From the NCBI GenBank assembly GCA_964633825.1, contig CAZWHE010000126.1, positions 1 through 12,406 of the forward strand: DNA of 12,406 nt, read 5' to 3'. The notes below the pieces were generated by a model. It saw only the letters and a program-made list of their open reading frames with translations. It was not told where the DNA came from and searched no databases. Origin of the DNA: an uncultured Phycisphaerales bacterium (lineage in GTDB: Bacteria; Planctomycetota; B15-G4; CAYZWU01). Made by a program: the position numbers and the translations under genes. Shown here in pieces: positions 417-8,241 of this stretch (position 1 is its first letter; every line of letters begins with the position of its first letter).

Positions 417-475
417 GAGTCTCCCTCCTATAAAGGGCTGTGCTGAATAATGCGGCTGAATTCCTCAGGTAGGGG

Positions 476-503
476 ATTATACATAAAAGAGGAAGGATGT
501 CAC
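476..503 (-). promoter_or_regulatory. Candidate sigma70-type promoter for the beta-helix gene (-35 GTGACA, 16-nt spacer, -10 TATAAT preceded by TG)
   Basis: Minus-strand reading gives ...cctGTGACAtccttcctcttttatgTATAATcccc, about 55 nt upstream of the ATG at 416. Called by eye only. Confidence 0.35.
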
Positions 504-4370: not shown

Positions 4371-5447
4371 ATGGCGACAACACGGGATCGAATAGCGTTT
4401 CTCCTCTGGGTCCTGATCGTTATCCCGGGCTTTACTTCCTTGTCGAGCGCCAAGGATTCGGGGCCGGCCGTCGGATCGGTCGCGCCCGAAATCGGACCAT
4501 GCCAGTGGCTTCAGAAAGAAAAGGATCGCTCCACCAAGATCGCTGAGCTTCGGGGGATGGTCGTCCTGATCCACACCTTTGCAGTGGGTTGCTTTCCGTG
4601 AGAAAGCAAGGGCATTCCGCTGGTAGCGGAAACGGTGAATGCCAACGGCGACAGGGGGATCACGGCGATCTCGCTCACGGCCAACAACCCCGAGCTGAAG
4701 TCGATTGTTAAGAAAAACAATGTGAAGCACGCCATTGCCCTGATGTCAGCGATTACGAAAACGTGCCCCTATGTGGATGTCGGCAAGAACGGGTTCACCT
4801 ACGTATTCGTTGTCGGGCGGGACGGAAGAATCTTTTGGAGAGGAAACCAAACGGTCAAGGAGAAGGATTTCCTCAAGGCGGTCGGAAAAGCGCTGGAAAC
4901 GAAAACGATCCCGGCGTTCGAGAGGACTCTCGATCCCGTCCTTGATGATGCTGTCTCCATGTACAATGATTTCAGGTTCAGCGAAAGCCGCAAGGCCGGG
5001 CAAAAAATCTTTGACAAACATTCGCGGAGATCCGGCGGGGACTCCGCCGGGATTGCCGAGGATGCGGCCTTTCTCATCGAACAAATCGACGATTTTTCAG
5101 AAAAGCTTTTCCTTCGCATGGAGCTGGCCGTGGAGACCAAGGCCGGAATCCCTTTTGTCGAGTCACTGGACATGCTCACCACCGGTTTCGCAAAAAGCGA
5201 TGCAGCCGAGAAGGCGCGGGAGCTGACGCGGAAGGCCGGCGAAGACAGCCGGTTCGCATCGGAGATCAAGGCCGCAAGGGCCTGGCTCGACCTGGTCAAG
5301 AAACGGCCCGTCATCTTTTCCGAGAGCGGGAACAGGGCCTCCAGAGCGTTCGCCAAGAAACTCAGGAAGTTCATAAAGAGCTATGGGGGATTGACGGCGG
5401 CCGTTGAGGCCGAAAAACTCCTGAAACGTGCCGGCGGCCGAGGCTGA
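4371..5447 (+). CDS. Thioredoxin-fold (TlpA/ResA/redoxin-like) thiol-disulfide oxidoreductase. Candidate selenoprotein with Sec encoded by the in-frame TGA at 4599-4601 (active-site motif C-F-P-U) and a ~170-aa helical C-terminal extension. The track splits it into 4371-4601 and 4635-5447
   Basis: Both track ORFs are in the same frame (4371 and 4635 both ≡ 0 mod 3) with no other stop between them. The N-terminal part has a signal/anchor (IAFLLWVLIVIPGFTSLSSA) then G.VAPE...L..LRGMVVLIHTFAVGCFP-TGA. The read-through continues ESKGIPLVAETVNANGDRGITAISLTANNPELKSIVKKNNVKHAIALMSA...YVDVGKNGFTYVFVVGRDGRIFWRG, which is the remainder of a TlpA-type thioredoxin fold. A fold split exactly at the CxxC position is only sensible if TGA encodes Sec. 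SD GGAGA lies 6 nt before the ATG at 4371. Confidence 0.6.
4611..4643 (+). promoter_or_regulatory. Putative bacterial SECIS stem-loop downstream of the in-frame UGA of the thioredoxin-like gene
   Basis: The outer 7-bp stem GGCATTC/GAATGCC starts 9 nt after the UGA. Inside it, an apical hairpin UUCCGC-UGGUA-GCGGAA (4615-4631) starts 13 nt after the UGA, with G and U in the loop as in known bSECIS elements. Structure is inferred by eye; no energy calculation was done. Confidence 0.45.
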
Positions 5448-6781
5448 TGGGGGAGAAGCGGATAATCAACCGCTCGCCGAGAGAGGGCCGGCGTGAATGC
5501 GGCGTTTGGGGGATTTGTCTTGTTCTGTTGGCGGCCGTAACAGCCGCTCCCGCGCCTGTCGAATGGCTCCTGGTCAAGTCCCGGTGGACCGGTCCGCGCG
5601 CTCCCCATGTGGACGGGGTCTGCGAGATCGCCCTTCCCGATGACGAGCGGTTCATGCCTTCCTTTGTGGGGGACGCGGGTTACAAATCTCTTCGGTTGAA
5701 GTTTCGGGATCACGACGAAGGCCCGCGCACTTTCATCGTGAAGTGGACGCCCGGCGAGACGGGCGTGGAATCATTCTCCCTTCTCCTCGACGGCCGCGAG
5801 GTGGGAAGATCCCGGACCCTCGACGCCGCCGGCCTGGTGATGAGCGACTTCGTCGATGTTTTTCGCTTCAGTGTTTCGCCGAAAGGGGACCACGTTCTCG
5901 AGATCAGGCACGAGAGCGGGAACGGCCTCAACTTTCGAAGCTTTCTCTACAGCGACGAAGAGCGGCCTCTTCCTCCCGGGGCCGTTCGGTCGAAAAAGGA
6001 GTATGAAAAAGCACTGGGAGGCCGGGGAATCCGTCTGGAGACGCAGAACCTCGTGTTGTATGCGCCCTCCAAGCACGCGGGTTATGCGCGAAAGCTTGTC
6101 AAAGCCCTCGACGAAGCCTCTCTCCTGCTCAACGAGATCCACGGCGGAAAGCCGCCATACAGGATTTCCGTCGAGCATTTTCCCAAAGAGAGCCCGCGCG
6201 GTTTCGGAGGGGTCTCTACGGACGGCGTCGTTTCCTATCCCATTGACAACCTGAACGACCGGAGCGCGGAGTTCCTTCGCCACAAGACGCCGCGCATCCT
6301 GGGATACGTGGAGGAGATGTGCCACATCTACAACAAAGGGGATTTTTACTGCAGGGGGACCTACGAAGCATTGGGGATGTGCGTTTCCCGGCACACGGTG
6401 GAACGCGCGGCATCTTGTCCCCCTTTCCGGGCGAAGCTCGAGAGGTGGAGGCGTCAAGAGAAAGAGACATTTGAAGACTACGTTTCGTTCCGGTTCAAGA
6501 ATCCGGGCCAATACGAGTGGGGGATCTTCTACACCCGCATTCTCGTTCACCTTTTAGAGGGATATGCGGATTCCTATCAAGGCGATTTTTGGAAGGACTT
6601 CTTCAGCGAGCTTCGCAAGCGGAATTTTCCCCTGCAAAAGGCTCATAAAAAAGATCGCCTCGATGTGTACGCCCGGATCATGGGCGCTCTTCTCGATCGA
6701 GATATTCAAAAGGAATGGCGCGAGCTCGGCATCCGCCATGACGGCGATAAACCGTGGGGATGGAAGACATACGACCGATGA
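5447..6781 (+). CDS. Secreted hypothetical protein (444 aa), translationally coupled to the upstream thioredoxin-like gene (TGATG overlap)
   Basis: Stop TGA at 5445-5447 overlaps the ATG at 5447-5449. The basic N-terminus then hydrophobic VWGICLVLLAAVTAAPAP suggests a signal peptide. Long ORF with several conserved Cys/His (CHIYNKGDFYCRG). No family recognised. The minus-strand 259-aa overlap is judged a shadow ORF. Confidence 0.6.
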   Translation: MGEKRIINRSPREGRRECGVWGICLVLLAAVTAAPAPVEWLLVKSRWTGPRAPHVDGVCEIALPDDERFMPSFVGDAGYKSLRLKFRDHDEGPRTFIVKWTPGETGVESFSLLLDGREVGRSRTLDAAGLVMSDFVDVFRFSVSPKGDHVLEIRHESGNGLNFRSFLYSDEERPLPPGAVRSKKEYEKALGGRGIRLETQNLVLYAPSKHAGYARKLVKALDEASLLLNEIHGGKPPYRISVEHFPKESPRGFGGVSTDGVVSYPIDNLNDRSAEFLRHKTPRILGYVEEMCHIYNKGDFYCRGTYEALGMCVSRHTVERAASCPPFRAKLERWRRQEKETFEDYVSFRFKNPGQYEWGIFYTRILVHLLEGYADSYQGDFWKDFFSELRKRNFPLQKAHKKDRLDVYARIMGALLDRDIQKEWRELGIRHDGDKPWGWKTYDR

Positions 6782-6835: not shown

Positions 6836-6900
6836 TCATTTCATTCGGAAGCGACGCCTATTCTATCGTTTGTCTCGTTAATATTCGAATGGAGGAAGAC

Positions 6901-8241
6901 ATGAAAAAAACAGCGGCGGCAACAGCGGTGGTGTTTCTCTTTTTATGCGCGGGCGGGCTTCGAGCCGACGTTCCCGATCTCGAAGCCGGGGTCTTGATCC
7001 AAGACGGCACCGAGCCCCTTGAAGTGAACCTTCACTCGTCCTGCACCGTCGTGGACTGGAACAACGACGGCAAGAAAGACCTTGTGGTCGGCCAGTTCTA
7101 CTACGGAAACATCTGGCTCTTCCTCAATCAAGGAACGGACGCCAATCCCGTTTTCAACGGGGGCTCTCTCATTCAATCGAACGGATCTCCCATTACCACC
7201 ACCTACGGGTGATGTATCGGCGCGAGTCCGCGAGTAGTGGACTGGAACAATGACGGCAAGAAAGACCTCATCACGGGCGAGTACAACGGCAACGTCAGGA
7301 TCTACCTCAACACCGGCACCGATGCCGATCCGGTCTTCAGCGGGCACAACCTGCTGCAGGTGAACGGTTCGACTTTCGATGCGGGCTATTACTCCATGCC
7401 TTACATCGTCGATTGGAACGAAGACGGAAAGAAGGACGTCATCTGCGGGGAAAACGCCGGCGACATCCAGCTTCTGATCAACACGGGGACGGATGCCAGC
7501 CCGGTTTTCACAAGCATCGTCCGCGTCCAGGACGGGGGGAGCAATCTCGACGTGGGCAGCCGCTCCAGCCCGGTATCGGCGGACTGGAATGATGACGGCA
7601 AAAAGGACCTGCTCGTGGGCGAGACCTACGGCAGCATCAAATACTATGAGAACACGGGCACCAACGCCAATCCCGCTTTTAACGGCTCTGTCAGCTTGAC
7701 CGCCGGAGGTTCGCCCATCGACGTGGGATACTACCCGCGCTTCGAGGTGGCCGACTGGGACAACGACGGCACGCCCGACCTCCTTTCCGGTTTCTACGAT
7801 TATTACAACGATCCCAAAGCGGGCGTCTATTATTTCCACGCCGCCGGGGGGGTTGACTCGCTCACGACGGACGTGAACACGATCTCTCAAGCATTCGGAG
7901 GGGACGTTATTTTCTACATGGACGCGGGACTCGCTTACGGGGGGCGGGAATACTTCCTCCTGGGAACGGCCTCGGGCACATCGCCGGGAACGGCCCTGCC
8001 GGGCGGGGCGGTCCTGCCGCTCAACCGCGATGCGGTCATGAACTATATCATCGCCCACTACAACACGCCCGAGCTCTATGAATTCCGGGGAACGATGTAC
8101 AACACAGGCGTGGCCAAGGCCATGCTCTCCGTATCGGGAAGCATTCCGCTGCCCGTGGGCACGGTTTTGAACTTCGCTTTTACTACGGAGAACCCTTACG
8201 ATTTCCAGTCGAACGCCGTGTCGGTTGAAATCGTTAATTGA
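6901..8241 (+). CDS. Secreted FG-GAP/VCBS-like repeat protein with an in-frame TGA at 7210-7212. Candidate selenocysteine read-through (446 aa) or a gene disrupted by a nonsense mutation. The track splits it into 6889-7212 and 7237-8241
   Basis: SD GGAGG 5 nt before the ATG at 6901. Signal peptide MKKTAAATAVVFLFLCAGGLRA. At least five ~62-aa repeats with the FG-GAP calcium-binding signature DWN(N/D/E)DGKKDL...G......N.GT(D/N)A.P.F. Both track ORFs share one frame (≡ 1 mod 3) and the stretch between TGA and the annotated GTG (CIGASPRVV) is open and continues repeat 2 exactly. The upstream fragment alone would be a 103-aa protein with 1.5 repeats. The downstream piece has no SD. Confidence 0.5.

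Follow-up and report, generated by a model that had tools for sequence, protein, structure and literature searches.

A Probable Bacterial SECIS Element Downstream of an In-Frame UGA in a Thioredoxin-Like Gene of an Uncultured Phycisphaerales Bacterium

A 12,406-nucleotide stretch of DNA from an uncultured Phycisphaerales bacterium (contig CAZWHE010000126.1 of assembly GCA_964633825.1; hereafter, the window) contains a short hairpin, at positions 4615-4631 of the forward strand, that is very probably a bacterial selenocysteine insertion sequence (SECIS). The hairpin lies directly downstream of an in-frame UGA codon (4599-4601) within a gene at 4371-5447 (+). When this UGA is read as selenocysteine (Sec, or U), the gene encodes a protein of 358 amino acids, most likely a thiol-disulfide oxidoreductase of the ResA/TlpA-like type that is exported and has C-F-P-U as its active site, a function suggested by homology and by a structural model of a relative. 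A SECIS element had been proposed here from the letters of the DNA alone (the sequence-only reading), and that proposal is upheld by four observations: homologues have Cys at the UGA column, the hairpin is conserved only among Sec-encoding forms of the gene, its dimensions agree with the published consensus for bacterial SECIS elements, and its motif recurs downstream of a second interrupting TGA in the window.

Results

The gene consists of two in-phase open reading frames (ORFs), 4371-4601 and 4635-5447, with one internal TGA, and its product has a signal-like hydrophobic segment at the N terminus, followed by a thioredoxin-fold domain of the ResA/TlpA-like type and, at the C terminus, by an all-helical domain of approximately 170 residues. 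Around the UGA, the read-through protein has the sequence ...HTFAVGC-F-P-U-ESKGIPLVAE..., in which the C-F-P-U motif (TGC TTT CCG TGA, 4590-4601, +) aligns with CVPC, CASC, CGTC, CSPC, CSSC, CPPC, and similar motifs of homologues. Three diverged orthologues all have the in-frame TGA at this column, where full-length homologues encode Cys. For example, the UGA column is the second Cys of the CxxC motif in P0002 (CVPC; a Cys homologue with 54% identity), P0004 (CASC), L014 (CGTC), and P0007, and in P0006/L016, where the motif is SEPC, the Cys at the UGA column is still present.

When 1.84 billion representatives were searched exhaustively with a profile, 71 relatives (representative clusters) were identified at E ≤ 1e-30. 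Cys occupies the UGA column in all 18 of the full-length representatives inspected (e.g., CSPC, CSSC, CPPC, CDSC, and CGPC), and the full-length Cys homologues, of 350-370 amino acids, cover both halves of the interrupted ORF. Other members of the family are fragments: two N-terminal fragments, P0252 and P0253 (78-79 amino acids), stop exactly at ...GCVP and ...GCDP, and approximately ten C-terminal fragments of 275-290 amino acids (including P0146, P0158, P0160, P0161, P0167, P0173, P0176, P0177, and P0187) begin within approximately 10 residues past the U column. The coincidence of these ends and starts with the UGA column suggests that many further Sec forms may exist, unannotated and split at the UGA.

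To compare the hairpin among relatives, the Sec-form set comprised three independent sequences: the window gene (with identical copies L009 and L010), L002 and its copies, which come from at least five samples, and L015, from an uncultured Phycisphaerales metagenome-assembled genome. L002 and L015 share 55 and 53% protein identity, respectively, with the window protein, and among the three Sec genes the gene-wide rate of synonymous difference is 0.43-0.51 (counted over codons with an unchanged amino acid). In the hairpin codons, which encode G-(I/V)-P-L-V-A-(E/D)-T, this rate falls to zero (0/6, 0/6, and 0/8 between Sec forms), and the segment CCG CUG GUA GCG GA is unchanged in the window, L002, and L015. 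The longest run identical in all three Sec genes, along a gene of 1 kb, is the 16 nt at 4615-4630 (the next longest is 10 nt), and third-position identity, which averages 0.27 over the gene, rises to 7/8 in the eight-codon interval that starts at 4611.

The equally close Cys form, L007, differs from the Sec forms at 4-5 of 6 synonymous sites in the hairpin codons: it encodes PLVAE as CCG CUC GUC GCU GAA, and the three synonymous changes fall on two bases of the loop and on a single pair of the stem. The predicted pair probability of the apical hairpin is accordingly distributed between the forms, at 0.95-1.0 in L002 and L015 (where it is the minimum free energy (MFE) structure) and 0.0 in L007. 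The RNAalifold consensus of the three Sec forms consists of the apical hairpin plus GGC/GCC pairs. The sequence-only reading had named conservation of the hairpin, but not of its codons, in homologues as a check; the hairpin is indeed found in all Sec-form homologues recovered, and L007 has lost it through synonymous codon changes. From the three independent Sec sequences, the structure thus appears to be kept in Sec forms and to be dispensable in this Cys form.

The sequence from 4590 is TGC TTT CCG TGA GAA AGC AAG GGC ATT CCG CTG GTA GCG GAA ACG GTG AAT GCC, and the elements named in the sequence-only reading (TGA at 4599-4601, GGCATTC at 4611-4617, GAATGCC at 4637-4643, and TTCCGC-TGGTA-GCGGAA at 4615-4631) are all where it placed them. 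The putative SECIS core is the apical hairpin UUCCGC-UGGUA-GCGGAA (4615-4631, +), with its stem formed by 4615-4620 and 4626-4631 and its loop by 4621-4625; pairing of U4621 with A4625 would give a 7-bp stem and a GGU triloop in place of 6 bp and a 5-nt loop. In line with the spacing of about 11-13 nt given in that reading, 13 nt separate the UGA from the apical hairpin. Beneath the hairpin, a possible lower stem is formed by GGCA (4611-4614, +) and UGCC (4640-4643, +); it is seen in the constrained fold, and its GGC/GCC portion, the only conserved one, recurs in the RNAalifold consensus of the Sec forms.

These features were compared with the bacterial SECIS (bSECIS) consensus of the Zhang and Gladyshev bSECISearch model (summarised in PMC13188914, Fig. 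2A), which specifies an apical loop of 3-9 nt and an upper stem of 4-16 bp. The same consensus has 16-37 nt between UGA and loop, an energy of at most -7.5 kcal/mol, and a G in the first or second loop position, within N1-G-[G|U]-N-N2 (PMC13188914). The window hairpin is a stem-loop directly 3' of an in-frame UGA, within an ORF that runs on to 5447. Its loop and stem measure 5 nt and 6 bp, or 3 nt and 7 bp, and its loop reads U-G-G-U-A, with the U and A able to pair. The distance from UGA to loop is 19 nt (pentaloop) or 20 nt (triloop), and the hairpin alone has a folding energy of -8.0 to -8.9 kcal/mol, while a competing fold at -14.2 kcal/mol remains the MFE. Rfam 15 returned no SECIS-like match, either for the whole window at the gathering threshold or for 4500-4760 at E ≤ 10; two chance fragments of small nucleolar RNA/microRNA families were the only matches. 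To our knowledge, Rfam has no bacterial SECIS family, and this null result is therefore uninformative.

A second gene in the window carries a related hairpin. Two ORFs in the same frame, 6889-7212 and 7237-8241, are separated by a TGA, and read through it they encode ...TTTYG-U-C-IGASPRVVDW.... This gene (6889-8241, +) is a second candidate selenoprotein gene, whose predicted product of 450 amino acids has a signal peptide, FG-GAP/VCBS repeats, and the motif G-U-C. Its putative SECIS region spans 7210-7243 (+): the UGA (7210-7212) is followed by UGU (Cys), and the hairpin at 7225-7243, AGUCCGC-GAGUA-GUGGACU, has a 7-bp stem and a 5-nt loop. When the U of UGA is numbered +1, both hairpins have their loop at +23 to +27 and share UCCGC-NNGUA-GYGGA from +18. 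The pattern TCCGCNNGTAGYGGA occurs in the window at 4616 and 7227 only, where 0.02 matches are expected, and both matches lie exactly 17 nt past the T of an ORF-interrupting TGA. In addition, both loops (4621-4625 and 7232-7236) contain GUA, which among the Val codons of the window genes is the least used (11/228, or 5%); this would fit selection on the RNA that outweighs codon preference.

Homologues of the FG-GAP protein are numerous (2524 proteins at E ≤ 1e-10), and among the best 120 about 106 are 319-340 amino acids in length and correspond precisely to the sequence beyond the UGA. One full-length homologue, P0058, has Cys at the U column. Six FG-GAP genes from other metagenomes all (6/6) have TGA-TGY followed by (G/U)UCCAC-NNGU(A/C)-GUGGA(C/U) in the same register. 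The corresponding Cys-form control (P0058, L025) keeps a 5-bp remnant of the stem; because this remnant is encoded by conserved Ser/Pro...Val-Asp residues, the control is only partly informative.

Together with the three thioredoxin-like Sec genes, the seven FG-GAP genes (that of the window and the six fetched) make up ten related elements. G25-U26 (G4623-U4624 in the window hairpin) is invariant in 10/10. At pair 21-29, the thioredoxin-like genes have G-C, the window FG-GAP gene has G-U, and the six fetched FG-GAP genes have A-U. A search with TCCRCNNGTMGTGGA, a pattern based on the FG-GAP genes only, finds 4616-4630 at one mismatch (the compensating C), against an expectation of 0.05 matches per window. 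A second search, in which a covariance model of the ten elements (R2) was run over 148 kb of loci, recovered one further gene, an FG-GAP paralogue whose hairpin, L020 1-21 (-), scored 25 bits (E = 7e-4) outside the training set and lies just past an ORF-interrupting stop. This gene (L020 1-356, -) is the second FG-GAP paralogue on its metagenome contig, and is arranged as a 107-aa ORF, a 24-nt gap, and an FG-GAP ORF. One other candidate was set aside: the segment AUUCCUC-AGGUA-GGGGAUU at 459-479 (+) of the window, at 17.9 bits (E = 0.053), is probably a chance match, as it is intergenic and antisense to the flanking minus-strand genes, and the closest TGA, at 444-446, misses the SECIS register by one base.

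Several results weigh against the assignment of 4615-4631 as a SECIS element. The apical hairpin is not the MFE structure of the window sequence, and its ensemble probability is 24% in a 48-nt context and 1-17% with other flanks. Folding z-scores are weak (-1.3 and -1.9), with 11-20 of 200 shuffled sequences folding equally well, and a perfect-stem hairpin that agrees with the bacterial SECIS consensus follows 21 of the 410 TGA triplets in the window (5.1%). Across the ten elements, covariation comes down to essentially one pair and is not significant, with 109/500 shuffles reaching the observed score. A covariance model of the seven FG-GAP hairpins (R1) places 4616-4630 at rank 14, the thioredoxin-gene hairpin, with a non-significant 6.8 bits (E = 3.3); FG-specific sequence dominates this model. 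With regard to Sec machinery, ARAGORN detected no tRNA or Sec-specific tRNA in the window or in 15 loci, and selA, selB, and selD are absent from the 12.4-kb window and the fetched loci. Given the weak z-scores and the 5.1% of TGAs that are followed by a comparable structure, the hairpin by itself proves nothing; its significance derives from conservation and position, and not from thermodynamics.

The folding results also bear on the architecture of the element. RNAfold predicts an MFE of -14.2 kcal/mol for 4599-4645 (47 nt), with the 7-bp outer stem plus an inner helix, GCUG/CGGU, and a 10-nt loop, and an MFE of -16.5 kcal/mol for 4599-4660. The best fold that includes the apical hairpin reaches -13.1 kcal/mol, with the lower stem GGCA/UGCC, the 7-bp hairpin with its GGU triloop, and an 8-nt bulge on the 3' side. 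Trimming from the 5' end, which mimics occlusion by the ribosome, still leaves the apical hairpin short of dominance, as long-range pairing with GGGGGAU (4654-4660) wins. The sequence-only reading had described the outer stem as enclosing the apical hairpin. Each complementarity does exist, and the two cannot coexist, as both need 4615-4617 (UUC). Nor does the outer stem survive as a part of the element: its 3' arm, GAAUGCC (4637-4643, +), pairs with 4611-4617 in the MFE structure, and this pairing is specific to the window sequence, competes with the hairpin, and is not conserved in orthologues (in L002 and L015, 5/7 positions are pairable, with pair probabilities of 0-0.02). That reading had also looked to the MFE structure for the hairpin, which is missing from the one predicted for the window sequence. 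This failure is not counted as a refutation because the hairpin is the MFE structure in both orthologues, L002 and L015, at a pair probability of at least 0.95.

Four alternative explanations were weighed against these data, of which one accepts a SECIS element and differs as to its shape. The functional fold could be the MFE structure itself, i.e., the outer stem 4611-4617/4637-4643 with GCUG/CGGU and the 10-nt loop GUAGCGGAAA. This fold has the lowest energy, with pair probabilities of 0.74-0.96 in the 48-nt context, its segment ACGGU is invariant in the three Sec forms, and its loop begins with GU. We nevertheless consider it unlikely: its pairs all but vanish in L002 and L015, as given above, its loop exceeds the 3-9 nt of the consensus, and the FG-GAP sister elements share the apical hairpin only. 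Less probable still is that the UGA is a true stop, the result of gene splitting, pseudogene formation, or an error in sequencing, and that the hairpin is an incidental coding structure. Gene callers do report separate products of 76 and 270 amino acids, and hairpins of like quality follow 5% of TGAs, as noted. Against this stand the presence of the same TGA in independent assemblies from many samples and three lineages at approximately 50% synonymous divergence, conservation at the protein level in both halves, a peak of nucleotide conservation exactly on the hairpin, and the fact that a split would sever the thioredoxin fold within its active-site helix.

Downstream hairpins are able to stimulate read-through in some systems, and the UGA could be read through without Sec, either by hairpin-stimulated near-cognate decoding or because UGA has been reassigned to sense. 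Besides this general capacity of hairpins, the lack of Sec machinery within 12 kb is compatible with such an explanation, to which we give little credence. TGA is the ordinary stop of 6/10 window genes, including those supported by Pfam, which indicates that UGA is not generally reassigned; the recoded site is a redox Cys (CxxC to CxxU), and the hairpin has SelB-type consensus features at canonical spacing. Finally, TTCCGC...GCGGAA is a perfect inverted repeat, and this palindrome of 16-17 nt could be a DNA-level protein-binding site (an operator) within the coding sequence. An operator would leave unexplained why two unrelated genes have the repeat at a constant 17 nt from a TGA and why it is restricted to Sec forms, and across the elements it is pairing, not sequence, that is kept through A-U, G-U, and G-C changes; we regard this explanation as exceedingly improbable. 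A SECIS element with the apical hairpin as its core remains the strongly favored interpretation.

The family assignment of the thioredoxin-like protein was drawn from profiles and from a structural model. The Pfam Redoxin profile matches residues 35-164, across the UGA, at E = 0.002 and 18.3 bits (cut-off, 26.6), and the ResA model NF002854 scores 25.3 bits (cut-off, 170); no Pfam or NCBIfam threshold is reached. NCBIfam release 20 likewise has no model at threshold for either this protein or the FG-GAP protein. On these profile scores, the thioredoxin-like protein is a distant relative of the curated Redoxin/ResA models and lies outside their membership. The fold was deduced from the AlphaFold (AF2) model of the Cys homologue P0002, which has moderate confidence (pLDDT, the predicted local distance difference test, of 69). 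In this model, a strand (66-70) is followed by a helix (77-93) that opens at C76-V-P-C79, the placement of a thioredoxin-fold CxxC at helix 1, and Foldseek matches it to the ResA, DsbE, CcmG, and DipZ oxidoreductases at E of about 1e-5.

With respect to gene neighborhood, the selenoprotein gene ends in a TGA that shares bases with the start codon (ATG) of an ORF at 5447-6781 (+; 444 amino acids), in the sequence TGATG (5445-5449), which suggests that the two may be translationally coupled. The 444-aa ORF has no Pfam or NCBIfam match. The two are also neighbors in L009, a near-identical contig, and L010 ends 107 residues into the downstream ORF; at the L002 orthologue locus, another gene is found downstream in place of the 444-aa ORF.

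Discussion

The proposed decoding event follows the established scheme for bacteria. When the UGA at 4599-4601 enters the ribosomal A site, the hairpin, 13 nt downstream, would sit just outside the mRNA entrance, where the C-terminal winged-helix domains of SelB would bind its upper stem and loop, chiefly through G-U at 4623-4624. SelB-GTP would thereby bring Sec-tRNA(Sec) to the ribosome, and the UGA would be read as selenocysteine instead of stop, after which the ribosome would melt the hairpin and translate it as I-P-L-V-A-E. We infer that SelB binds the hairpin, that Sec is inserted, and that this genome carries selA, selB, selC, and selD; complete Sec gene sets have been reported for some Planctomycetes (PMC4807772).

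This mechanism, SelB-dependent recoding of UGA by means of a downstream hairpin, is textbook knowledge, and it is the protein family, from Planctomycetota, that is uncatalogued. The gene, which annotations everywhere break into two fragments, would really be one exported CxxU selenoenzyme. Beyond the single gene, we consider the chances about even that the hairpin is an instance of a lineage-specific, nearly sequence-defined class of SECIS elements, found in Planctomycetota and relatives, that marks at least two selenoprotein families outside the catalogue and NCBIfam. The motif of the proposed class would be UCCRC-NNGUM-GYGGA, starting exactly 17 nt past the U of UGA, and its families would be the CxxU ResA/TlpA-like exported oxidoreductase and an FG-GAP/VCBS beta-propeller with G-U-C.

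Sequence is otherwise a notoriously poor guide to bacterial SECIS elements, and the value of the present one would lie in a tight, position-fixed consensus for the lineage. If the class is real, simply searching for the motif could bring to light a large part of the phylum's hidden selenoproteome. The consensus has already led to the FG-GAP family, which is much larger, appears to be systematically mis-annotated (almost all of the FG-GAP/VCBS family entries in the databases are truncated at the UGA), and lies outside the usual repertoire of thioredoxin-fold selenoproteins. No FG-GAP, repeat, or propeller family is listed in the 2026 catalogue of prokaryotic selenoproteins (PMC13188914), and a search of a literature library found no paper linking FG-GAP or VCBS to selenoproteins.

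Among known elements, the window hairpin can be set beside those of two Escherichia coli genes. The fdhF and fdnG SECIS elements, studied by Bock, Huttenhofer and colleagues, reportedly require a minimal upper stem-loop of approximately 17 nt, located approximately 11 nt past the UGA, in which G23-U24 contact SelB. The window hairpin is similar in its length of 17 nt, its position 13 nt past the UGA, and its invariant G25-U26; it differs in its stem sequence, in a spacer that is 2 nt longer, and in the lack of a bulged U, while L002 and L015 fold with a bulged C33. Relative to the broader bSECIS consensus, it is alike in being a coding-sequence hairpin directly after the UGA that agrees with every feature listed above, and differs as a tighter, sequence-defined lineage variant (the UCCRC-type motif at a fixed +18) that is not the MFE structure in the window sequence.

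At the protein level, one comparison is with the VPGUxxT family thioredoxin-like (seleno)protein type 1 (NF041382), which resembles the window protein in length (349 profile positions) and has weak similarity to its C-terminal part: residues 171-352 (about 4881-5426) faintly match NF041382 positions 179-348 (E = 0.0046, 16 bits). This match hints that an accessory helical domain may be common to two different thioredoxin-like selenoprotein families. The proteins are otherwise different, with 16 bits against a cut-off of 350, another Sec position and motif, and a thioredoxin half that is unmatched. The closest functional counterparts in the catalogue form a TlpA/redoxin group, comprising the Thiol-disulfide isomerase-like family (cd02966, UxxC), the UGC-containing TlpA family, and the Redoxin family (PF08534, UxxC) (PMC13188914). 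With these selenoproteins the window protein shares a ResA/TlpA-like thioredoxin fold and Sec in a CxxC-type redox motif, but it differs from them in having Sec at the C-terminal position of that motif (CxxU) instead of the N-terminal one, and in its additional all-helical C-terminal domain.

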